Part shown: positions 54,505 through 63,039 of the stretch, piece by piece
How the letters are laid out: every line of letters begins with the position of its first letter
Numbering within the stretch: the first letter of the stretch is position 1
Origin: Candidatus Buchananbacteria bacterium
GTDB taxonomy: Bacteria; Patescibacteriota; Patescibacteriia; CAIXNZ01
Direction of reading: 5' to 3'
Length of the DNA stretch: 64,000 bases
Assembly (NCBI GenBank): GCA_014729025.1
Contig: WJKP01000045.1
Span: 20,015 to 84,014, forward strand
The notes under the pieces: model-generated
What the model saw: the letters and a program-made list of their open reading frames with translations, nothing else
What the model was told of the DNA's origin: nothing
The model's database searches: none
Translations under genes and position numbers: made by a program

Positions 54505-56526
54505 TTATAATTCAATTATATCACCTTCTTTAACATTATTATTATTTTCCTCTGCTGAAGCCAGTAAATTAGCCGCTGGCAATTTTTCTTTTGTCGAGCC
54601 TTTTTCTGCTTTTTCTGCTTTTTCTTGAACTTGTTGTGAAGATTCTTTTTTCTCCGGAGCTAACACTTTTTCTTGTTCTACAGATTCTTTTTCTGCTTCA
54701 ACCGGTTGTGTTTTTTTAATTTCCTTTTGTATTTCTGGTCTTGAAATTTCTTGTTTGGTTGGCTGTACTGGCTTAGTTTCTTTTATTGTCTTTTGCTTGG
54801 CTAATCCTATGGGCTTATCTTCTTTAATTGGTTGGATTTTTTGAGGTTCAGACTGTTTTGCTGATTCCGATTTTTTTTCTTCAGGTGATTTACCTTTAAA
54901 ATCAACGGTTTTTTGCGAAATCTGTGATAAAGAAACAGCTTCTTGTTGTTGTTGCGTTTTTTCTTTACTCACTTCATCAGGTTTAACACCTATTTCTCCG
55001 CGGCGAGCTTTTTTAAGGCATTCTTTACAAAAAACTGGACGCACATTATCTGGCTTAAAAGGTACTTCAATTTCTTTTTTACAGCCAGAACAAACAGCTG
55101 GCCAGCCCTTATCTTTCTTTTTTTCATTTGATGTGGTTTCCGCCTCTCCTTGTTTTAATTTTTGCTCATTTGACTGTTGAGAAATCAGCTTACCTTTTCC
55201 TTCAACTTCCTTTTTGTCTTCAGTTATTACACCACTCCATCTTTTTATTTTATCTTCAACTACATTTTTGGGTTTAGCGTATCTTTCCCTGGAAACATTA
55301 ATAACTTTTTGTTCGTTACCCAAAGAATCACTATAAACCGGGGGTAACCCTCTAGCTGAAAATGGTTCAGAGGCTATCCCGTCAATCATTAATTTTAAAT
55401 AGATATGAAACTTTGGCAAAGCGACCAGATCTTCCTGAGTTAAATAAGGCATAAACTCTTTTTCTAAAAATTCAGCATCAGCTGCACCGACCCGAAAACA
55501 CATTAAAGTGCCGACATTACCAAAAACTGCCGGTCTAACTACCTCGCCTAATTGTTCTATATATTGATGAGCAATAATTAAATTCAAGCGATACTTACGA
55601 GCCTCTGATAAAATATCAGCAAAAGAATCGGTCGCAAAATTCTGAAATTCATCAACATATAAATAAAAATCTTTCCGATTATCTTCTGGAATATCAACCC
55701 GGCTCATAGCTGCCAACTGAATTTTTGTAACCATCATGGCACCAAGTAAAGCAGAAGCGTCTTCACCAATTCTCCCCTTGGAAAGATTTAGAATTAAAAT
55801 TTTATTTTCATCCATTACTTTTCTTAAATCAACTGCTGATTTAACCTGACCGACTACATTACGAATTAATGAAGTTGATAAAAACTGCCCCACCTTGTTT
55901 TGAATCGGTGAAACAACTTCTTGTAAAACTCTTTCATTCCATCTGGGAAATTCATCAACCCAAAAAGAACGAACTACCGGATCAGTAATTTTAGCTACTA
56001 CTTTTTTACGATATTCTTTATCAACCAACATACGGTTAATTCCCAATAAAGTACTATCTGGATATTCCAAAAGAGCCAAAATCGCATTTCTTAAAATATA
56101 TTCCAAACGAGGTCCCCAAGAATCAGCCCATAACTTTTTAAATACACCAATTAAACCAGAAGCAACCAAATGACGATGCTCAGAAGAAACTTTTTCCAAA
56201 ACATTAAATGAAATGGGATAATGCAAATCAGACGGATTAAAATAAATAACATCATTAATACGACTGCTTGGTATCCAGCTCAACATCTTTTCGGCAGTAT
56301 CACCATGAGGATCAACATAACAAACCCCTTTACCGGCAATAATATCCGAATAAACCATATTTTCAATCAAAGTTGTTTTCCCCATACCGGTTTTACCAAT
56401 AATATAAACGTGACGACGCCGATCATCTTCTTTAATCCCAAAAATCCGCTCTCTGTTTCTAAAAGTTGTTACAGCAAAAGGTGTGATTCCGCTTTCCACT
56501 GCTTTTTTAATTTGTTCTGTTACCAT
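54505..56526 (-). CDS. VirD4/TraG/TrwB-like type IV coupling-protein ATPase domain protein. It has no N-terminal TM, a C-terminal Zn ribbon and a K/E-rich tail.
   Basis: Walker A is HVYIIGKTGMGKTTL and Walker B is FYLYVDEFQNF. RKYRLNLIIAHQYIEQL and an all-alpha-domain-like AVFGNVGTLMCFRVGAADAEFLEKEF are present. The C-terminal zinc ribbon is CSGCKKEIEVPFKPDNVRPVFCKECLKK. Confidence 0.55.
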   Translation of the reverse strand: MVTEQIKKAVESGITPFAVTTFRNRERIFGIKEDDRRRHVYIIGKTGMGKTTLIENMVYSDIIAGKGVCYVDPHGDTAEKMLSWIPSSRINDVIYFNPSDLHYPISFNVLEKVSSEHRHLVASGLIGVFKKLWADSWGPRLEYILRNAILALLEYPDSTLLGINRMLVDKEYRKKVVAKITDPVVRSFWVDEFPRWNERVLQEVVSPIQNKVGQFLSTSLIRNVVGQVKSAVDLRKVMDENKILILNLSKGRIGEDASALLGAMMVTKIQLAAMSRVDIPEDNRKDFYLYVDEFQNFATDSFADILSEARKYRLNLIIAHQYIEQLGEVVRPAVFGNVGTLMCFRVGAADAEFLEKEFMPYLTQEDLVALPKFHIYLKLMIDGIASEPFSARGLPPVYSDSLGNEQKVINVSRERYAKPKNVVEDKIKRWSGVITEDKKEVEGKGKLISQQSNEQKLKQGEAETTSNEKKKDKGWPAVCSGCKKEIEVPFKPDNVRPVFCKECLKKARRGEIGVKPDEVSKEKTQQQQEAVSLSQISQKTVDFKGKSPEEKKSESAKQSEPQKIQPIKEDKPIGLAKQKTIKETKPVQPTKQEISRPEIQKEIKKTQPVEAEKESVEQEKVLAPEKKESSQQVQEKAEKAEKGSTKEKLPAANLLASAEENNNNVKEGDIIEL

Positions 56527-56538
56527 ATTTAAATAAAA

Positions 56539-58221
56539 TTAATCAATAAATGGAATATTACCAGGAATAGCTCCTGTCGATTTATCTGATTCAGAATCCT
56601 CTTTTTCTTCTTTTAGTTTTGTAGATTCTGTTTCTTTTTTGGTTTCCTTTGCTTTTTGGGGTTCAGCTTCTTGTTTTTTTATTTCTGCTAATTTTTCTTT
56701 TTCTTCTTTAGCTATTTCTGCCAATCTATCTTCTCTGACCGGCCGTGTCTTTTTAAATTTATCTTTATCTTTGGCAAATTGCATTTCAAAATCATCACTA
56801 TCATAATCAAAAGTCGGCTCAAATTGTTTTTCTTCTTCAGGTGTTTCTTGGTGAGCTTGTTCTGCCCTATCTTCAACCGGTTTTAATGGGGCTTCTTGAA
56901 CGGGTAACCCAACCGGCGCTGCTGCTTTGGTAAATTCTGTTTTCTTTAATAAAGGCGCTTTAACATACATACTTGGGAAATGCCACAAAGAAGCTAATTC
57001 TTCACTACATAATGGTTTAGCTGGTACACCAACAACTGTATCGCGGTTAATATAAGCTCGAATAAATTGATTTTTACGCCATTTTTTACGAGCTTGAATT
57101 AAAATATATTGAGGTGAATTAGTGCCAGTTTCTTTTAACATCGGCCTTAAACCATTAGTATTGACATCTGTCCATTGCTTTATAGAACCAATCATCGCAT
57201 TAACACCCAATGTTTTATTCATTTTATCTTTTTCTGCTACATAAAGATAACGTATCTTAGTATTAAAAGCCCATTTGGCTGTTTTTCTTTCAATACCATC
57301 AACTATTTCTTTTTGAGCTGAAGTTAAATTCATTATACTGGGCTGTTTTTCATCTACTTTAGCCTCTTCACCGCCCCCTAAATTCACCCCAGCTAATTGA
57401 TCTGTAAATTCATTTATAAAATCAGCTGGAAATTTAAACAGACTTCCAAAAAATCCTTGTTTTGGCTTTGATTTAATACCTATAACTTTATTTACCTCTT
57501 CTTTACCTTGTTTAATGCCCCAATCAACCGCCAAAGGAGTTAAAATATATTGAACCCAAATTTGCTCGCCTGGACCTATAGAACTCATTGTTTCTAATAA
57601 TGCTGCCATAGGATCAACAAAAGTTTCAGAAAAACGGTGCTCAAATTTTTGCCATGATTTTAAAGGAATCAACGGATTAGCTGAAAGTGTAAATTCTACA
57701 CCCCAAATATCATGTGTATCATTGGGATAATCTTTAGGAACAGAATTAACATAATCTTCAACCTCAGTAATTTCCGCATCAGGAAATTGAGAATAAACAG
57801 CCGCCTCAACCAAATTACGCCAATCACCTGGACAACGAATTAGAAACTGAATATTGCCTTCAATACTAACCAACTCAACTGATAATGAACGCATGAACTC
57901 ACCTTCAATATATGTCCCCCATTTAGTAAAAGTTGTATGAGCGCCTTGTAAGTGATCAAAAAAGTTTTCCATCGCCTGAATACTTTGCTCATTTCTTTTA
58001 GGGACATCTATAGCCAAAATTACCGGACCAGGCTGTTTACTAGCCCATTTTCCGCCAATATATAAACGATATTCAGGATATATTAAATAACGCAAAACAA
58101 TATAAACAAATAAAACCCAGAGCCAATACTTAAATAACAGGATATATAATATCCCAAAAGTTGATTGACCTTCAAACTGGGCTAAAAATTGATAAAAATA
58201 AGTTAAATCTATTTCAATCAT
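56539..58221 (-). CDS. hypothetical membrane-anchored protein, probable partner of the downstream coupling ATPase
   Basis: The N-terminal TM is ILYILLFKYWLWVLFVYIVL. A ~400-aa globular domain and a K/E-rich tail follow. Only 12 nt separate it from the ATPase gene. Confidence 0.45.
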   Translation of the reverse strand: MIEIDLTYFYQFLAQFEGQSTFGILYILLFKYWLWVLFVYIVLRYLIYPEYRLYIGGKWASKQPGPVILAIDVPKRNEQSIQAMENFFDHLQGAHTTFTKWGTYIEGEFMRSLSVELVSIEGNIQFLIRCPGDWRNLVEAAVYSQFPDAEITEVEDYVNSVPKDYPNDTHDIWGVEFTLSANPLIPLKSWQKFEHRFSETFVDPMAALLETMSSIGPGEQIWVQYILTPLAVDWGIKQGKEEVNKVIGIKSKPKQGFFGSLFKFPADFINEFTDQLAGVNLGGGEEAKVDEKQPSIMNLTSAQKEIVDGIERKTAKWAFNTKIRYLYVAEKDKMNKTLGVNAMIGSIKQWTDVNTNGLRPMLKETGTNSPQYILIQARKKWRKNQFIRAYINRDTVVGVPAKPLCSEELASLWHFPSMYVKAPLLKKTEFTKAAAPVGLPVQEAPLKPVEDRAEQAHQETPEEEKQFEPTFDYDSDDFEMQFAKDKDKFKKTRPVREDRLAEIAKEEKEKLAEIKKQEAEPQKAKETKKETESTKLKEEKEDSESDKSTGAIPGNIPFID

Positions 58222-58324
58222 AATTATTATATATTATACTAAATTTTAATTGTTTTTACTAGTTTAAAAATAACAAAAAACCTCTTTAGGAGGTTTTTTG
58301 TTAAATTGTGTATTTGATTTATTA

Positions 58325-59395
58325 TTATATTAATTCATAACGTCCATTTTCTAGTCTTTTAAACTTATCTTTGTTCATTAAGACCAAAGTAATGGTTGTT
58401 TTTTGCACTAACCGCTGTTTTAAAACTTCTTCAGCTAATTCTTTTTTGGACATCGGGCCATTATTCTTTAAGATGTTTTCAATAATATCAGCAACCGTAC
58501 CTTCTTGATAACCCCATTCACGTAAAGCATAAATACCACGGCCAACCAGTACATATTTATCATCTAAAATTAATTCGTTATGAACTGTTGCCGGATGAGC
58601 TTTTTTTCTATCAAAATTAGCCTGATTAATCAATTCAGCCAATTCTTCGAAATGTAACGGACGATTTTCTCTTAACATTACCAAATAAGCTTTATCAGTC
58701 ATTCTTTTGGGTTTAATAGTATTCCAGTGATAAACACCCCATTGACCTAAAATATTTCTATTTAAATCTTGTCTAATACTTAATAAAGCTTCTAAAATTG
58801 CCAAATCTTCGGCTTGTCTTTCTTTTATATAATCGTAATATTTATGTGATTGAAATTGAGACGATAAATCCTCTAAATGTAATGGCTTACCATGATTTTC
58901 AATTAATTCTTTCAAAGCCGAAGCAATAGCTACTGCCTGGTCCAAATCAACATCTTGCAAGGCAAAAACTACATGGTGATCATTTAAATCAACGACTCTT
59001 TTAATATTACCGGCAAAAATATTAGCCAAAATAAAATTCAAAGCTTTTTCTTCTACTTCAAGCTGTTCTTGTAATAATTTTTCCTGTAAATGCCATTCTG
59101 CCATAATACCGCCATGTGATTTTAAATAATCTAAAATAATAGATTCCAGATCACGAACCGGTAATTTGGCTCTATCATAATCCATATTTTTAATTTTTTT
59201 CAAACCTTCTCTTTCGATTTGTCGAACACGTTCACGCGTAATATTAAAATCCTTACCAATTTGCTCCAAAGTGTGTTTTGGATAATCTGCTAAGGCATTT
59301 CTTTTTTGCAAGACTTCTTGTTCTCTATCAGATAAATTAGCCAATAAGGCATTAACCAAGTCTGCATAACTAATTGTTTTTATTTTTGCTGTCAT
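58325..59395 (-). CDS. Sigma-70 region-4-like HTH protein with C-terminal HARE-HTH/winged-helix domains (no region 2)
   Basis: The N-terminus LSDREQEVLQKRNALADYPKHTLEQIGKDFNITRERVRQIEREGLKKIK matches sigma region 4.2. The C-terminal HARE-HTH signature is KAHPATVHNELILDDKYVLVGRGIYALREWGY, with a second HARE-like element KDKFKRLENGRYELI. Confidence 0.6.
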   Translation of the reverse strand: MTAKIKTISYADLVNALLANLSDREQEVLQKRNALADYPKHTLEQIGKDFNITRERVRQIEREGLKKIKNMDYDRAKLPVRDLESIILDYLKSHGGIMAEWHLQEKLLQEQLEVEEKALNFILANIFAGNIKRVVDLNDHHVVFALQDVDLDQAVAIASALKELIENHGKPLHLEDLSSQFQSHKYYDYIKERQAEDLAILEALLSIRQDLNRNILGQWGVYHWNTIKPKRMTDKAYLVMLRENRPLHFEELAELINQANFDRKKAHPATVHNELILDDKYVLVGRGIYALREWGYQEGTVADIIENILKNNGPMSKKELAEEVLKQRLVQKTTITLVLMNKDKFKRLENGRYELI

Positions 59396-59570
59396 ATTAT
59401 TTAAATTATAATAATTATTGTTTATATAAAAAATACAAAGTATAAGTTATTTACCTATCTTTAATCTATATCATAGTATAACATATATAAAAAAATATGT
59501 CAAGGTTTTGCTAATAATTGTATTATAACTTATAATTTACATTTTGGCAAGTCTCTTGTCTAATTAATGT

Positions 59571-59599
59571 ATATTAAAATATTTTATTAAAATTGTCAA
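59571..59599 (-). promoter_or_regulatory. Sigma-70-like promoter (TTGACA-N17-TAATAT) on the minus strand, upstream of the HTH gene
   Basis: On the minus strand, ttgaca is at 59594-59599 and taatat at 59571-59576. It lies immediately after the terminator at 59611-59685. Confidence 0.45.
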
Positions 59600-59610
59600 G
59601 AAATTTAAGT

Positions 59611-59960
59611 AAAAAAAATATTCCCGACCACTTTATCTCATTATTATTCGCTTTGGCCTGCGAACTAGAGATTTTCATCGGGAATGCTTAGAATTTTCTT
59701 TTTCTCATCTTGTTTTCCCCCTTTTAGGTTGAATTTGCCAAAAATTGTTAGCGGGGGAAAGATTTTACCCACGAGCTCGTTATAGCCCCCAAGTTCGGCC
59801 ATAACATCATTGGGCAATTCTTCCTGCCATTCGCCAAGCAGTCTATCCCTTTCTGCTTTGCAGGGCTTCTGTAACAATACTAAACGGTCTTAAAATTACA
59901 GGTCGCTTTAGTAGCTGTACGATGATTAAAGTCATCGGTAATTTTAACAGTTTGTCTTGT
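59611..59960 (-). ncRNA. Candidate structured RNA of unknown class. It is a ~45% GC island ending in an intrinsic terminator.
   Basis: The 180-nt core counts 81/180 G+C, against ~30% around it. The stems are tttccccc/gggggaaa (59714-59722/59751-59759) and attcccga/tcgggaat (59620-59627/59678-59685), followed by U9 on the minus strand. No RNase P, tmRNA or SRP consensus blocks were found by eye. Confidence 0.3.
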
Positions 59961-59970
59961 TTATTTAATT

Positions 59971-60990
59971 TTAGCTCTTTTTTAAGCGCCAGTCTAATTT
60001 TTGCCAAACAACCAATAATGGCGCAGCAATAAAAATTGAAGAATAAGCACCCAATAATATACCGGTAACCAAAACTAAAACAAAATCACTAATAGTTGTC
60101 CCGCCAAAGATTAAAATAGCCAGTAAAACCAATTCAGTAGTTAAAGAAGTATTAATTGAACGAGTAATTGTTTCGCGTACACTTTTATCAACAATTTCTT
60201 CAAATTCACCTTCATATTTATGCAAATTCTCCCTGATTCTGTCAAATACAACAATCGTATCATTAACCGAATAACCCAAAATAGTCAATAAAGCAGCTAC
60301 AAATGGCGTATTTACTTCCAAACCCAAATATTTGCCTAAAAATATAAAAATACCTAAAGTAATTAAAATATCATGAAATAAAGTAATAATTGCAATTATA
60401 CCATATTTCCAAGAACTGACCGGATACGAAACTTTACGAAAAGCCCAAGCAATATAAAAAACAATAGCAATCAAAACTAATAAAATTGCCCAAATTGACT
60501 TAGATTTTAATTCCTGTCCAATTGACGGCCCAATTGCTTCAAATCTTTGTTCAATTACTTTATCTTCAGATCCACTAACTGTAACTGCCTCGGCTTCTAA
60601 TTCCATTGTACTATTTTCAGCATCAGTAGTAATTTCAATATTTTCCTCACTTTCTTCAAGATCAGACTTTCTCTGCTCGTCCTTATCTTCTACATTATTT
60701 AATCTATTTAATATCTGCTGATGAGTTTCTTCACTTATTTCTTTAAATCTTAAAATATAACCATTTTCACCTGTTGGCTGTATATTTAATCCTTCTAAAT
60801 TTAAATCAGCCAATGATTGTTTTACTTGCTCAATATCTGGCCCTTGCTCTTTATATTTGACTTCCAATAAACTGCCACCTGTAAAATCAATGCCCAAATT
60901 CAAACCCCAGGCAATCCAAATCAAAATAGAGGTGAGTACGATCACACTCGAAATAGTAAAAAATATTTTTCTTTTATTAATAATCTTCAT
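59971..60990 (-). CDS. secF: Protein translocase subunit SecF (with an acidic insertion)
   Basis: GIDFTGGSLLEV and C-terminal TMs (YSVNDTIVVFDRIREN) are present. An acidic insert DKDEQRKSDLEESEENIEITTDAENSTMELEAEA is present. Confidence 0.85.
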   Translation of the reverse strand: MKIINKRKIFFTISSVIVLTSILIWIAWGLNLGIDFTGGSLLEVKYKEQGPDIEQVKQSLADLNLEGLNIQPTGENGYILRFKEISEETHQQILNRLNNVEDKDEQRKSDLEESEENIEITTDAENSTMELEAEAVTVSGSEDKVIEQRFEAIGPSIGQELKSKSIWAILLVLIAIVFYIAWAFRKVSYPVSSWKYGIIAIITLFHDILITLGIFIFLGKYLGLEVNTPFVAALLTILGYSVNDTIVVFDRIRENLHKYEGEFEEIVDKSVRETITRSINTSLTTELVLLAILIFGGTTISDFVLVLVTGILLGAYSSIFIAAPLLVVWQKLDWRLKKS

Positions 60991-60993
60991 ATT

Positions 60994-63039
60994 TTATTCA
61001 CTTTCTTGTGTCTTTTTATACAAAAATAACCAATTAATTTTATTAATAAAATTCCAGTTGATGACTGATTGTAAAACTGTCTTAGTTACAAACAATGCTG
61101 AAATCATAGAAATTAAAATACCAATCAATAAAGTTAAAGCAAAACCCTGAATAATACTTGTGCCAAACCAGTATAAAATAACACAAGTAATCAAAGTCGA
61201 GATATTACCGTCACGAATAGACGGCCAGGCGCGCTCAAATCCTTCGCTAAGCGCTGAACCTAGTGGTTTGCCTAACTTTAATTCTTCTTTCATTCTTTCA
61301 AAAATCAAAACATTAGCATCCACTGCCATACCAACTGATAAGATAAAACCAGCTATGCCAGCCAAAGTTAAAGTGACTGGAATTAATTTAAAAATAGCTA
61401 AAATCACTATCCCGTAAATACATAATGAAATAACCGAAATTAAACCGGGTAACCGATAATAAATTATCATAAACAAACCAACTAAAATCAAACCTAAAAT
61501 TGCGGCCTCTAAACTCTTAGTTAAAGATTCTTGCCCCAAACTGGCGCCAACGGTTTGCTGTGAAATAATATCAATTGGTACTGGCAAGGCACCGGCATTG
61601 AGGCGTCTGACTAAAGTTTTGGCCTCTTCTAAGGTAAATTTGCCAGTAATCACCGCTTTACCACCGCTAATTTTTTCATTGACCCTGGGTAAGCTAATAG
61701 GCTCACCATCAAGAAAAATACCAACGACCTGCCCGACATTACGAGCAGTTATTTCCTCAAAAAGTTGTTTTCCTTCATCATTAAACTGCAATTCAACGTT
61801 TGGTTCATTGGTATTAGGATTAAAACTAACCTGTGCGCCGTCTAATTGTTTACCGGAAAGTCCAGTATATTCAAACTGTTCCTGTGGCACAATATCTGAT
61901 TTTTTTTGTTTTTTAATTAAAACTCTGTAAACTTGAAAAGTTCTTTCTTGTTTTTCATCTACTTTATGAATCAAATGAAAACCAAATTGTGTTTCAACAA
62001 TATCAGAAATTTGACCATTTTCTAAATTAAACGCAACTTCTTCAAATTCAGGCACCATTTGTCCTTTACTAAAAAAGCCCAAATTACCACCACTAGTATC
62101 AGCGCCTGGTTCGGTTGAATTTTCTTTGGCTAATTCAGTAAAATTTTCAGGTGTAGCCTTTTCTTTTAATTCCTCAATCTTGCCTCTGGCATCTTCTTTG
62201 GAAATATCTTGTTCGCAACGAGTCGCGCCTTCATAACAGATTAAAATATGACTGGCTTGGACCTGTTTTTCTGTGCCGTTTTCACCACGTTTTAAAATAT
62301 TATAACCCTCACTATTTTCAAAAATCTGCCCATAAATATCACCTGGGGCAATTTGTTTAATTGGCGTTAAAAATTCGCTTTTAGGTCCGCTTTCACTAAT
62401 AAAACCTAAATCACCACCATCTTCTTTAGTTGCCAAATCTTCTGATTTTTCTTTGGCAATTTTCGAAAACTGATCAGGATTATTTTTAACTTCTTGTAAA
62501 ATTTCTTCAGCTTTTTGTTCTGCTTGTTGATTATATTCTTCTAATTGTTGCTGCTGGTCTTCGCTTAATTCAACTTCACTACTGGCTTGTTCTTTAAATT
62601 CCAATAAAGGTGTTTCACCGATCATTTTTATTGCTTCATTGACATCTTTAATGCCGGCTAATTCAACAATTACCCTATACTGTTTACCTACTTTAGTTGT
62701 CTGAACCAAGGGCTCGGACACGCCAAACGCATTAACTCTTCGTTCAATCACATCGCGAACACCTTCAACTGCATCGGCTTGATCTTTAGTCGGCACCTTA
62801 GAAACATCAGCATTATAAACCAAATGCGTGCCACCCTGTAAATCCAAGCCTAAAACAAACGATAAATCAGGATAATGAGGCAAATCAAATGGTAATTTAT
62901 TATTAGCCCAATCAACTGAATTATTCCAAATTTTGGGATAATCTAAAAAGCCTGCCAGAATTGCCACTAGCAAGATTAAAACTATATATAATCTAATTTT
63001 ATTGCGCTGACTAATTGTTACGCTTGATTTTCTTTTCAT
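60994..63039 (-). CDS. secD: Protein translocase subunit SecD carrying one canonical and one degenerate parvulin (PpiC-type PPIase) domain in the periplasmic head
   Basis: The N-terminus has GLDLQGGTHLVY and the TM core has VDANVLIFERMKEE. The inserted canonical parvulin is ASHILI...SGGNLGFFSKGQMVPEFEEVAF...TQFGFHLIHKV. A preceding degenerate copy is SEDLATKEDGGDLGFISESG...YNILKRGE. Confidence 0.85.
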   Translation of the reverse strand: MKRKSSVTISQRNKIRLYIVLILLVAILAGFLDYPKIWNNSVDWANNKLPFDLPHYPDLSFVLGLDLQGGTHLVYNADVSKVPTKDQADAVEGVRDVIERRVNAFGVSEPLVQTTKVGKQYRVIVELAGIKDVNEAIKMIGETPLLEFKEQASSEVELSEDQQQQLEEYNQQAEQKAEEILQEVKNNPDQFSKIAKEKSEDLATKEDGGDLGFISESGPKSEFLTPIKQIAPGDIYGQIFENSEGYNILKRGENGTEKQVQASHILICYEGATRCEQDISKEDARGKIEELKEKATPENFTELAKENSTEPGADTSGGNLGFFSKGQMVPEFEEVAFNLENGQISDIVETQFGFHLIHKVDEKQERTFQVYRVLIKKQKKSDIVPQEQFEYTGLSGKQLDGAQVSFNPNTNEPNVELQFNDEGKQLFEEITARNVGQVVGIFLDGEPISLPRVNEKISGGKAVITGKFTLEEAKTLVRRLNAGALPVPIDIISQQTVGASLGQESLTKSLEAAILGLILVGLFMIIYYRLPGLISVISLCIYGIVILAIFKLIPVTLTLAGIAGFILSVGMAVDANVLIFERMKEELKLGKPLGSALSEGFERAWPSIRDGNISTLITCVILYWFGTSIIQGFALTLLIGILISMISALFVTKTVLQSVINWNFINKINWLFLYKKTQESE

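Follow-up and report, generated by a model that had tools for sequence, protein, structure and literature searches.

A role in -35 recognition has reportedly been established for several region 4 residues of E. coli sigma70 (R562, T583, R584, E585, R586, R588 and Q589), in work of Gardella and of Siegele in 1989 and of Campbell et al. in 2002. In isolation, sigma region 4 binds -35 DNA weakly. The helix-turn-helix (HTH) domains of LuxR/GerE regulators form a related class, tri- or tetra-helical and evolutionarily near sigma region 4, and the HARE-HTH domain is said to have been defined in a 2012 paper by Aravind and Iyer. The delta subunit of RNA polymerase (RpoE of the Bacillota) docks by its N-terminal domain between the beta-prime shelf and jaw, while its polyanionic C-terminal region carries the nucleic-acid-displacing activity (PMC7749165). 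The HARE-HTH domain of another protein, ASXL1, pulls down with 6mA-containing DNA (PMC6591016). In BREX, Dnd and HerA-FtsK "capture" systems, too, sigma-related HTH domains, alpha-CTD-like domains and winged-HTH (wHTH) arrays repeatedly serve to bind DNA (PMC12839542, PMC10853773).

The ultra-small Patescibacteria (CPR) account for much of bacterial diversity, and transcription control in them is almost unknown, with very few regulators. We have analyzed a stretch of 64,000 nucleotides from Candidatus Buchananbacteria (the window), in which the original prediction had described a sigma region 4 that lacks region 2 and is joined to domains of the HARE-HTH type. Pfam, NCBIfam, a PDB profile search and an AlphaFold2 model all confirmed that combination. 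The protein belongs to a family, here called r4-HARE, in which pieces of the transcription machinery occur in an arrangement not seen in studied bacteria, and which is CPR-enriched and essential in the one species tested.

Domain architecture of the r4-HARE protein

The coding sequence, a member of the CPR r4-HARE family, runs from an ATG start on the minus strand and spans exactly 58325..59395 in the ORF list, encoding 356 aa with sigma region 4 and four winged-helix domains (assigned from the ORF list, PF04545 plus PF05066 and the AlphaFold2 model). The peptides QIGKDFNITRERVRQIEREGLKKIK and VGRGIYALREWGY are both found in this ORF, and the protein is 100% identical to a hypothetical protein of a Ca. 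Buchananbacteria MAG. The two Pfam searches proposed with the original prediction each gave a match above the gathering score: Sigma70_r4 (PF04545) at aa 17-69 (E 3e-16, 59.1 bits vs a gathering score of 24.1), and HARE-HTH (PF05066) in three stretches, the best of them at aa 232-294 (E 1.2e-13, 51.7 bits vs 25.9). One HARE-HTH and a second HARE-like element had been expected; the HARE-HTH is there, as the third of four winged-helix domains that the AlphaFold2 model (pLDDT 92.1, pTM 0.79) places at aa 80-146, 151-221, 232-291 and 301-355.

The sigma module (aa 1-72; 59180..59395, minus strand) is an HTH of the region 4.1-4.2 type, with a recognition helix, T53-R-E-R-V-R-Q59, that corresponds to T583-Q589 of E. 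coli sigma70. The N-terminal 70 aa had been called region 4.2; they are sigma region 4, but span 4.1 as well as 4.2. Across 136 diverse family members no change is seen at E55, R56, R58 or Q59, and conservation reaches 90% or more at T53, R54, I60 and R32. The conserved residues align with T583, R584, E585, R586, R588, Q589 and R562 of E. coli sigma70, and the -35 contacts among these (R584, E585, R586, R588 and Q589) are invariant or nearly invariant in the family. Sigma positions that follow the recognition helix (K593, K597, R599 and L607) are not kept. When a family profile was run against all PDB sequences, sigma region 4 was the only thing matched, with region 4 of T. maritima RpoD at the top (1tty, E 5e-18). 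The best Foldseek matches of the model were sigma-A-region 4/beta-flap-tip chimeras, and PDB 3n97, with alpha-CTD and sigma region 4 on neighbouring promoter DNA, was among both the PDB profile and the Foldseek matches. A recent duplication of the region 4 of CPR SigA was considered as the origin of the module and is unsupported, the identity being 47-49% to CPR SigA vs 47-53% to SigA of other phyla.

A cryptic region 2 or 3 was looked for by Pfam at E <= 1, NCBIfam, the PDB profile search and the predicted structure, and its absence holds; Sigma70_r2 and Sigma70_r3 had zero Pfam matches even at that threshold. The NCBIfam RpoD and RpoS models align solely via their region 4 part (aa 10-72 of the protein), and the sigma superfamily model TIGR02937 scores 32.6 bits, below its cut-off of 42.9. 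Because sigma region 2 is absent, the protein should be incapable of DNA melting or -10 binding. The possibility of a LuxR/GerE-type HTH was also pursued: neither GerE nor Response_reg had any Pfam match at E <= 1, and the HTH is of the primary-sigma type. No anti-sigma family was matched in Pfam or NCBIfam. Since region 2/3 is absent and the HTH is of the primary-sigma type, both proposed refutations fail, and "atypical transcription-related factor" is a fair label for the protein.

The four winged-helix domains differ in charge and conservation. The first (wH1, aa 80-146; 58958..59158, minus strand) is acidic and poorly conserved, with the secondary structure H-E-H-H-E-E in the model, a family median charge of -3 and weak profile similarity to the second and fourth. 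The second (wH2, aa 151-221; 58733..58945, minus strand), recognized from the AlphaFold2 model, profile similarity and family conservation, is likewise acidic and poorly conserved. The third (wH3, aa 232-294; 58514..58702, minus strand) is the Pfam HARE-HTH match, basic and similar to the N-terminal domain of delta, and the fourth (wH4, aa 301-355; 58331..58495, minus strand), assigned from the model and sub-threshold winged-helix Pfam matches, is conserved and basic. Conservation is highest in the whole protein for wH3 (0.69), followed by wH4 (0.55), the sigma module (0.48) and wH1 and wH2 (0.32 each); family-wide, the sigma module, wH3 and wH4 are basic and wH1 and wH2 are acidic. In the HARE-HTH signature, a helix plus a G-R-G-x-Y-x-L wing, residues H272, N273, L275, G285, G287, Y289 and L291 are invariant. 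The delta equivalog model TIGR04567 gives 40.2 bits, just under its cut-off of 42, in an internal match (aa 230-295), and a delta-type acidic tail is absent, the C-terminus being a folded basic winged-helix domain. No structural analogue of the whole winged-helix array was found among the matches, which are generic and single-domain; weak fold matches of the model include cullins, Dcc1, ESCRT-II and histone H1/H5.

Distribution, relatives and essentiality

Sequence searches indicate that the fusion of sigma region 4 to a winged-helix array is the fixed architecture of a Patescibacteria-wide family with thousands of sequence clusters. The array alone, used as query, recovered 1241 representatives at 50% identity, 427 of them with E <= 1e-30. 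When the 150 best were checked with an HMM made independently from 61 bona fide sigma factors, 135 proved to have sigma-4 at the N-terminus; the remaining 15, of 143-296 aa, are fragments. In a second search 7987 of 8000 scored candidates had E <= 1e-20. The best 120 homologues of the whole window protein showed 95-100% query coverage and, nearly all, both PF04545 and PF05066. Membership was defined by full-length homology, with the domain order kept and a length of about 340-400 aa, and the window protein has all of these features. Among GTDB species representatives, all 14 full-length matches are Patescibacteria, spanning Saccharibacteria, Peregrinibacteria, Kaiser-, Falkow-, Paceibacterota and Parcubacteria, and phage records gave no r4-HARE match. 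Judging from these searches, the family appears confined to Patescibacteria, save for a small divergent sister clade. A full-length SigA with its own region 4 is encoded in eight CPR loci. Some family members are longer: in five the two domains are unchanged and only the linkers extended, and one is fused to SecF, in all likelihood by read-through of the gene next to it.

Family members are annotated as "RpoS", "RpoD" or "sigma-70 family sigma factor", and several (JGI) as "RNA polymerase delta subunit". Such widespread mis-annotation inflates the counts of sigma factors, and of "stress sigma" factors, in CPR genomes. Literature searches on the r4-HARE architecture, DUF8128, CPR sigma and delta factors and Saccharibacteria "RpoS" turned up no study of the family among the searchable papers, and the mentions of "rpoS" in CPR papers are irrelevant to it.

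Proteins of the non-CPR sister clade carry one to three RNA_pol_A_CTD domains ahead of a sigma-4 plus four-winged-helix module. This module aligns along its full extent to aa 9-355 of the query (23% identity, E 1e-16) and keeps the recognition helix as SRER[VI]RQ; the extra N-terminal alpha-CTD part sets these proteins apart from the CPR family, as does their rarity (7 clusters in the homologue search). The clade comprises the "rpoD" copy on the Abditibacteriota plasmid pIAD-21, in which alpha-CTD was not detected, and metagenomic relatives. The sister-clade genes lie near Eco57I/MmeI-type N6-adenine methyltransferases and DUF4007, with two of four loci on plasmid-like DNA and one of four without an adjoining methyltransferase. 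PADLOC, applied to the r4-HARE protein of the window, matched only the sigma-4 part of MzaA (34.4 bits) and, weakly, PDC-S25, with no full-length match.

Evidence on essentiality comes from Ca. Southlakia epibionticum, in which Wang et al. (2023) flagged SEML1_0294 ("RpoS") as a core family (= 1) and as Patescibacteria-enriched (= 1) in their Tables S1/S2 (PMC10633639). In that protein PF04545 lies at 27-72 and PF05066 at 225-283, and it was parsed as a tri-helical plus three winged domains (PMC10633639). We count it as a same-architecture gene by architecture, length and synteny rather than by sequence alignment: the position of the Pfam pair is the same, the lengths are 349 vs 356 aa, and a TrwB-like neighbour lies downstream. 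Its Tn-seq call was ES/ES/ES, class I essential, like those of RpoD and DnaG, with 24 insertions in the input DNA and 1, 1 and 2 at T0-T2 (PMC10633639). SEML1_0294 appears in the tables of that paper, without discussion in its text; RpoD and SEML1_0294 are the only sigma factors named in Table S1 (PMC10633639). The VirD4-like gene downstream, SEML1_0293, encodes a TrwB-like protein of 921 aa that was flagged as core and CPR-enriched and called NE/NE/NE, non-essential (PMC10633639). The neighbour in S. epibionticum is apparently a single protein, with the ATPase at residues 361-795, as against two genes in the window, which suggests a fusion of the DUF8128-like and VirD4-like genes described below.

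Transcription unit and neighbouring genes

A consensus promoter had been predicted upstream of the gene, and it is genuine; an orthologous locus preserves a tandem series of two, perhaps three, promoter-like sites. Site P1 (59475..59503, minus strand) consists of TTGACA, a 17-nt spacer and a TG-extended TATACT, agreeing with the consensus at 11/12 positions scanned, and neither hexamer varies in the orthologous upstream regions of loci L004 and L005, though the proteins are only ~65% identical. Site P2 (59522..59550, minus strand), also found by the consensus scan, has TTGCCA, a 17-nt spacer and TATAAT, of which TTGCC and TATAAT are kept in the same two loci. A third -35-like hexamer, TTGACA with a weak -10 (59571..59599, minus strand), keeps its TTGACA in L004 and L005 but not the -10, and could be a distal promoter or a binding site. 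In the window as a whole TTGACA occurs 42 times vs 31.7 +/- 6.2 expected, a marginal enrichment; 5 of 100 shuffles gave at least that many. Upstream of the gene, the candidate structured RNA has a fold z-score of -2.6, and the same stretch also has a small ORF. Rfam gave nothing at the gathering threshold in the whole window, the candidate RNA being without a match, and at E <= 1 in 58150-60100 it gave chance-level matches on the terminator alone; no tRNA or tmRNA was found.

Directly after the stop codon, a bidirectional intrinsic terminator hairpin (58271..58303, assigned to neither strand) parts the r4-HARE gene from the DUF8128-like gene. An equivalent hairpin with a U-run is found in L001, L002, L004, L011, L012 and L019, which brings to seven the loci where the stop codon is succeeded by a terminator. 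With conserved tandem promoters and a terminator of its own, the gene is monocistronic.

The gene beyond the terminator encodes a DUF8128-like membrane protein of 560 aa (56539..58221, minus strand), which has no Pfam match of its own and a homologue in L002 with PF26449. It is followed by a gene for a VirD4/TrwB/HerA-like ATPase of 673 aa with a CxxC-x17-CxxC zinc finger (54505..56526, minus strand), and both are possibly functionally linked to r4-HARE. The DUF8128-like gene is directly downstream in 16 of 17 assessable loci (the window and 15 more), a linkage that spans ABY1-type lineages to Saccharibacteria at protein identities of 31-100%, and the ATPase gene comes next after it, in synteny, in 10 loci. 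The ATPase of the window matches TrwB_AAD_bind, TraG-D_C ("TraM recognition site"), HerA and PADLOC mad8. SecDF upstream and RpiB/Rpe downstream of the r4-HARE gene are also syntenic, and because these are unrelated, the gene order is partly just conserved. Repression of the DUF8128-like promoter via a -35 hexamer was considered and rejected; the promoters in question have a conserved AGGTATAAT -10 and no TTGACA. Within the window no second sigma-4 or HARE gene is present.

Candidate functions and comparison with known systems

The explanation that we tentatively prefer, at somewhat short of an even chance, is that the r4-HARE protein is an essential DNA-binding factor that works on its own and recognizes hexamers of the -35 type. 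The sigma-4 HTH would bind TTGACA-like hexamers in trans, unheld by the beta-flap of RNA polymerase, and the basic, conserved wH3-wH4 pair would add contacts to flanking DNA or, like delta, to the beta-prime subunit of RNA polymerase. The acidic, variable wH1-wH2 stretch would be a spacer, and may shield the hydrophobic surface that in sigma lies under the beta-flap. By binding at promoter regions the protein would serve CPR bacteria as a general transcription factor of the housekeeping kind, either activating transcription by recruitment of RNA polymerase or repressing it by occlusion of the -35 element. DNA reading is favoured because the -35 residues are kept, the C-terminal sigma positions are not conserved and the sister clade adds alpha-CTD. 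Sequence specificity in trans is an assumption, since sigma-4 alone binds such DNA weakly, and another shared partner could be the cause of the recognition-helix conservation. The deep CPR adjacency argues for a link to the DUF8128-like/VirD4-like machinery, of which the DNA-reading explanation makes no use; the methyltransferase neighbourhood of the sister clade is a defence-like context and counts against it, as does the merely marginal enrichment of TTGACA in the window, and a regulator that is essential while the effector beside it is not would suit a role like that of an antitoxin or immunity protein as well. It is doubtful, if conceivable, that Patescibacteria possess an essential basal factor, of a kind absent from model bacteria, in which a free-standing sigma-4 reads -35 hexamers in trans and a delta-like winged helix contacts RNA polymerase. 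If this is true, CPR promoter recognition would be split between SigA and a second, non-sigma protein, and the alpha-CTD relatives found next to methyltransferases would descend from the same promoter-reading module by way of mobile elements, or be its ancestors.

The gene neighbourhood suggests a different role, in which the array of sigma-4 and winged helices picks out or retains DNA for, or restrains, a DUF8128-like plus VirD4/HerA-like translocase. We consider this possible, though on balance improbable. The pairing would be analogous to that of relaxosome accessory proteins with coupling proteins, or of multi-wHTH "scanning" modules with the HerA/FtsK translocases of defence systems. It may then be, with similarly limited confidence, that essentiality reflects the toxicity of an unrestrained translocase. 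An essential gene beside a non-essential effector fits such an immunity-like regulator, but the neighbour is dispensable whereas the r4-HARE gene is class I essential like RpoD and DnaG. The DUF8128-like gene adjoins in 16 of 17 loci and the VirD4-like gene in 10, and the TrwB-like neighbour in S. epibionticum is also core and CPR-enriched; SecDF and RpiB/Rpe, however, are syntenic as well, and r4-HARE is a separate transcription unit, with a strong terminator in between in seven loci and conserved promoters of its own, while the promoters of the DUF8128-like gene are without a TTGACA -35 hexamer. The kinship of the ATPase to TrwB_AAD_bind, TraG-D_C, HerA and mad8, the Eco57I/MmeI-type methyltransferases and DUF4007 that adjoin the non-CPR relatives, and the similar DNA-binding parts used by the surveyed BREX, Dnd and HerA-FtsK systems (PMC12839542, PMC10853773) all speak for the role in translocation. 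On the other hand, a family that is conserved, phylum-wide and single-copy in the window does not resemble patchy, fast-evolving defence genes.

Binding to RNA polymerase itself, as an accessory subunit with wH3 on the beta-prime shelf/jaw and sigma-4 on the beta-flap tip in competition with SigA region 4, seems unlikely, and equally so a resulting role as placeholder, recycling factor or anti-sigma-like factor; the original idea of a beta-flap-binding anti-sigma-like or accessory protein is not favoured. The N-terminal domain of delta binds RNA polymerase and not DNA (PMC7749165), several family members bear the JGI name "RNA polymerase delta subunit", and essentiality is on a par with RpoD, but the acidic tail that is the working part of delta (PMC7749165) is absent. 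The beta-flap tip is the natural ligand of sigma-4, and the top Foldseek matches contain it; flap binding alone, however, gives no reason for invariant base-contacting residues, the equivalents of K593, K597, R599 and L607 are not conserved, and the sister clade adds alpha-CTD, a DNA reader. Judged by the general geometry of RNA polymerase, the confident, compact model (pTM 0.79) also seems not to be large enough to span from the beta-prime jaw to the beta-flap. A non-transcriptional DNA-binding protein, organizing or silencing the chromosome or acting in replication or segregation, is more improbable again. Five putative nucleic-acid-binding modules, three of them basic, an essential gene, and tandem winged-helix arrays of a kind common in DNA-handling proteins, with weak fold matches to cullins, Dcc1, ESCRT-II and histone H1/H5, would suit it, but these matches are generic and single-domain, with no analogue of the whole array, and the exact base contacts of primary sigma point to promoter-type hexamers rather than to general DNA binding. 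It is scarcely credible that the protein is a normal sigma factor that was truncated or mis-called, or a conventional regulator of the LuxR/GerE type. The automatic names "RpoS", "RpoD" and "sigma-70 family sigma factor" are contradicted by the lack of region 2/3 in Pfam, NCBIfam, the PDB profile search and the structure, by a sigma-4 that is N-terminal rather than C-terminal, by the TIGR02937 score of 32.6 vs 42.9 and by the separate, complete SigA of CPR genomes; the start codon of the ORF is common to the closest homologues, and there is neither a GerE match nor a receiver domain. A split, two-subunit sigma was rejected because eight CPR loci and S. epibionticum have a complete SigA/RpoD with its own region 4.

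If sigma-independent reading of promoter hexamers is true, the r4-HARE protein would represent a kind of general transcription factor new to bacteria. The gene is an obvious target for the genetic tools now usable in Saccharibacteria.

The gene product is neither a sigma factor nor a delta subunit. With region 4 of primary sigma factors (RpoD/SigA) it shares both 4.1 and 4.2, at 36-50% identity to SigA region 4 domains, but its module stands at the N-terminus, with none of regions 1.2, 2 and 3 ahead of it. The best matches are all primary sigma factors, and the protein has no receiver or ligand-binding domain, in contrast to LuxR/GerE regulators. The likeness to delta lies in wH3, a HARE-HTH that superposes on S. 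aureus delta; here, however, that domain sits inside a five-domain protein, without the polyanionic C-terminal region. In defence systems, the "scanning" modules (BrxA/DUF4007; PglW, with three wHTH domains and a domain like alpha-CTD; and the sigma-HTH in BrxL and DndH variants) are similar in that a helical domain of the sigma or alpha-CTD type is followed by several winged helices and in being encoded beside ATPases of the HerA/FtsK/VirD4 class (PMC12839542, PMC10853773). That likeness is one of domain order; unlike defence components, the CPR family is conserved, is represented once in the window and has an essential member in S. epibionticum.

Domain architecture and -35-reading residues

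The r4-HARE gene (window 58325..59395, minus strand) encodes 356 aa from an ATG start codon whose position is common to the closest homologues. The original prediction of a sigma-70 region 4 (sigma-4) fused to HARE-HTH domains without a region 2 was confirmed, far beyond chance, by Pfam, NCBIfam and a PDB profile search. Both Pfam domains lie above their gathering scores: Sigma70_r4 (PF04545) at aa 17-69 (E 3e-16, 59.1 bits versus 24.1), and HARE-HTH (PF05066) in three stretches, the best at aa 232-294 (E 1.2e-13, 51.7 bits versus 25.9). Pfam gave no match to region 2, region 3 or GerE even at E <= 1, the RpoD, RpoS and SigA models of NCBIfam matched solely via their region 4 (aa 10-72), and the NCBIfam sigma70 superfamily model scored below its cut-off (32.6 versus 42.9). 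When a profile of 35 family members was compared with all PDB sequences, the sole matches were region 4 of sigma factors, the top one from T. maritima RpoD (E 5e-18); the structures matched by sigma-4 include the ternary complex 3n97. A hidden region 2 or 3 was thus found by none of these searches, and a LuxR/GerE-type helix-turn-helix was found neither by Pfam nor in the PDB. The reading as an ordinary sigma factor or LuxR-type regulator is refuted, with next to no probability left to it.

A confident AlphaFold2 model built from the family alignment (pLDDT 92.1, pTM 0.79) has a helical sigma-4 module at aa 1-70 and, after it, a series of four winged helices of canonical H-E-H-H-E-E order: wH1 (aa 80-146), wH2 (aa 151-221), wH3 (aa 232-291, the HARE-HTH match) and wH4 (aa 301-355). 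The HARE-HTH domain originally proposed therefore stands, but in place of that domain plus a second HARE-like element the model has four winged helices. Their mutual similarity is weak (probability 58-77% in four of six pairs by profile-profile comparison), as fits a tandem array whose units have diverged. In an alignment of 136 diverse members, conservation falls from wH3 (0.69) through wH4 (0.55) and sigma-4 (0.48) to wH1/wH2 (0.32), and by median charge sigma-4 (+4), wH3 (+5) and wH4 (+5) are basic and wH1 (-3) and wH2 (-2) acidic.

Within sigma-4, E55, R56, R58 and Q59 are invariant in the 136-sequence alignment, as are L43 and G47, and conservation reaches 90% or more at T53, R54, I60, R32, T42 and L21. 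When sigma70 of E. coli and 61 bona fide sigma factors are added to the alignment, the conserved residues equate with sigma70 T583, R584, E585, R586, R588 and Q589, plus R562 and T572-G577; R584, E585, R588 and Q589 are well-known readers of the -35 hexamer. Residues K593, K597, R599 and L607, which follow the recognition helix and are nearly invariant in sigma factors, are unconserved in the r4-HARE family. The -35-reading positions vary among alternative sigma factors, which argues that their retention here is not demanded by folding.

A CPR family and its relatives outside the CPR

The protein matches a hypothetical protein of one Ca. Buchananbacteria MAG at 100% identity, and clearly belongs to a family that is large, uniform and spread across the CPR (Patescibacteria), annotated by automatic means and functionally undescribed. 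Its top 120 homologues, from Buchanan-, Uhr-, Falkow- and Parcubacteria, are 354-390 aa long, nearly all annotated with PF04545 and PF05066, and carry names such as 'sigma factor-like helix-turn-helix DNA-binding protein', 'HARE-type protein' and 'RNA polymerase delta subunit'. A winged-helix-only query (aa 76-356), searched against 1.84 billion representatives, gave 1241 matches at E <= 1e-3 (427 at E <= 1e-30). The best 150 of the 1241 are nearly all 340-400 aa long, with the match beginning at about residue 75-110, and an independent HMM from true sigma factors found an N-terminal sigma-4 in 135 of them; the other 15 are fragments of 143-296 aa, and therefore the fusion is the fixed architecture of the family. 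In a second homologue search, from a distant member, 7987 of 8000 candidates lay at E <= 1e-20. Among the matches listed in GTDB species representatives, all 14 full-length ones are Patescibacteria (Saccharibacteria, Peregrinibacteria, Kaiserbacteria, Falkowbacteria, Paceibacterota and Parcubacteria), and the remainder of those listed are ordinary sigma factors matched by region 4 alone. No r4-HARE match occurred in the 50,697 phage records searched, and literature searches found no study treating the sigma-4 plus HARE-HTH architecture. One 659-aa metagenomic representative (P0203) has SecD_SecF_C at 107-294 before Sigma70_r4 (334-381) and HARE-HTH (532-596); this SecF fusion most likely arose by read-through or by a gene-calling error at the neighbouring secF, and if real would tether the protein to the membrane.

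Outside the CPR, the winged-helix array matched one plasmid record, the 'rpoD' gene of the Abditibacteriota plasmid pIAD-21, whose alignment to the query spans aa 9-355 at 23% identity (E 1e-16), with 210 additional N-terminal residues. Its relatives in this sister clade are few (7 clusters); in them, one to three RNA polymerase alpha-CTDs (PF03118) precede Sigma70_r4 and then HARE-HTH, and the recognition helix SRER[VI]RQ is retained. In RNA polymerase, neighbouring stretches of upstream promoter DNA are read by two modules, alpha-CTD and sigma-4 (PDB 3n97), and their fusion in the sister clade would support DNA reading by the r4-HARE sigma-4. At the sister-clade loci (L086 26-1732, AP024153.1; L087 8001-10883; L088 8001-10781; L089 8001-9701), the next gene in three of four contexts encodes an Eco57I/MmeI-type N6-adenine methyltransferase of 930-1119 aa, followed in two of those three by DUF4007; the fourth context has neither. 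Some relatives of the family thus lie in surroundings that resemble restriction-modification or defence loci. The arrangement has the look of a module for restriction-modification, or one related to BREX, that is so far undescribed, with a DNA reader seemingly assembled from the promoter-binding domains of RNA polymerase. Published surveys count HTH domains of sigma type, alpha-CTD-like domains and multi-wHTH domains among the DNA-binding parts of BREX, Dnd and HerA-FtsK systems (PMC12839542, PMC10853773).

Gene neighbourhood and expression unit

The gene order in the window is SecD, SecF, r4-HARE, a 560-aa membrane protein, a 673-aa ATPase, RpiB and Rpe. The ATPase is VirD4/TrwB/HerA-like and bears a CxxC-x17-CxxC zinc finger; DUF8128 is present in the membrane protein's homologue in comparison locus L002. 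In a survey of 18 distinct loci, a DUF8128-like gene lies directly downstream of r4-HARE in 16 of the 17 assessable for it, the VirD4-like ATPase comes next in 10, and SecDF is upstream in 9. The DUF8128-like adjacency is kept in Saccharibacteria, Kaiserbacteria and Paceibacterota, where SecDF no longer adjoins; because it outlasts the SecDF adjacency, it argues for some functional link between the two genes, with part of the gene order simply conserved.

The DUF8128-like and VirD4-like genes (window 54505-58221, minus strand) are a conserved CPR pair, and the ATPase has a long K/E-rich tail and a PADLOC mad8 match (E 1.6e-19). Promoters of the DUF8128-like gene (L002 11170-11230, L004 11130-11165, L019 ~1555-1570, window 58222-58260) have a conserved AGGTATAAT -10 region in common, which in the window reads TAGTATAAT, and no TTGACA -35 hexamer is recognisable in these four. 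In SecD (window 60994-63039, minus strand), the first P1 segment is separated from the P1 head by two peptidyl-prolyl isomerase domains of the parvulin/PpiC type, a fusion conserved in the related CPR loci L001, L002 and L004.

Three promoter-like sites precede the r4-HARE gene on the minus strand: TTGACA, 17 nt, TG-TATACT (59503..59475); TTGCCA, 17 nt, TATAAT (59550..59522); and TTGACA, 17 nt, TAATAT (59599..59571). The orthologous regions ahead of the gene in L004 and L005, whose proteins are ~65% identical, keep every -35-like hexamer and the first two -10 elements unchanged, and their DNA around the sites has diverged; the consensus promoter originally predicted here is thus real. The hexamers follow one another at intervals of 47-49 bp (window 59475-59599, minus strand; L004 9760-10000), and the gene that they precede encodes a protein with a -35-reading domain; they may serve as tandem promoters, in autoregulation, or in both roles. 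After the stop codon, a terminator hairpin of 14-15 bp with U-runs on both strands occupies 58271-58303, with equivalent terminators behind the gene in L001, L002, L004, L011, L012 and L019. With its own promoters and terminator, the gene is monocistronic and probably strongly transcribed.

Between secF and r4-HARE lies a GC-richer stretch (59615-59900, minus strand) with an RNA fold z-score of -2.6 and no Rfam match, ending with a hairpin and U-run (~59625-59690). It contains a 70-aa TTG-start ORF (59665-59877); L004 has a small gene of 107 aa in the corresponding place, to which this ORF is weakly similar (E 0.002 across 20 aa). The stretch is a candidate small protein, gene remnant or small RNA.

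Essentiality and possible role

SEML1_0294 of Ca. Southlakia epibionticum, which we equate with the r4-HARE family by architecture, length and synteny, is annotated 'RNA polymerase sigma factor RpoS' (1050 bp) in the Tn-seq study of Wang et al. 2023 (PMC10633639), whose main text nowhere discusses it. In Table S1 of that study it is marked core family (1) and Patescibacteria-enriched (1), and it scores as essential at each of the three time points, with 24 insertions in input DNA versus 1, 1 and 2 at T0-T2; RpoD and DnaG share its essentiality class. The downstream SEML1_0293, a 921-aa TrwB-like protein, is core, enriched and non-essential (PMC10633639), and this single protein appears to be the counterpart of the DUF8128-like/VirD4-like pair.

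As to function, where every statement is one that we infer, we tentatively favor a stand-alone DNA-binding factor. The sigma-4 helix-turn-helix would read TTGACA-like hexamers, wH3-wH4 would make extra DNA contacts or a delta-like contact with RNA polymerase, and the protein would act as a general transcription factor. There is precedent for DNA contact in the ASXL1 HARE-HTH, which binds 6mA DNA (PMC6591016), and for polymerase contact in the delta N-terminal domain on the beta-prime shelf/jaw (PMC7749165). Synteny and the defence-like relatives would also suit a protein that recognises DNA for the VirD4-like translocase or restrains it, but a terminator separates r4-HARE from the DUF8128-like gene and the r4-HARE counterpart is essential where its neighbour is dispensable; an immunity-like logic could reconcile the latter point, and we regard such a partnership as rather unlikely. 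The RNA polymerase-docked subunit or anti-sigma-like factor of the original prediction, acting via the beta-flap, seems improbable, and a DNA-binding role outside transcription quite improbable. A split sigma factor is rejected: eight CPR loci, fetched via their region 4, encode complete SigA with regions 1.1, 1.2, 2, 3 and 4. The window has no other sigma-4 or HARE gene. CPR SigA N-termini have long, strongly basic, Lys/Ala/Thr-rich, histone H1-like tails of ~60-130 aa before a region 1.1-like segment (L035 4774-6207, L036 4801-6210, L042 4822-6201, L058 563-1882, L060 4849-6210, L070 3645-5030, L081 4714-6201).

The family offers a concrete, genetically tractable entry to CPR transcription, and its description corrects the widespread mis-annotation of members as RpoS, RpoD or delta subunit. 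Its modules are known, their arrangement is unstudied and their role may be new. The protein resembles sigma factors in sigma-4, but it has no region 2 and falls below the superfamily cut-off. It possibly resembles the delta subunit in HARE-HTH, but its score with the NCBIfam delta equivalog model (40.2 bits at aa 230-295) is slightly below the cut-off of 42, and it has no acidic tail. By these defining features the r4-HARE protein belongs to neither family, yet it would work like part of sigma, through sigma-4, and possibly like part of delta, through HARE-HTH.
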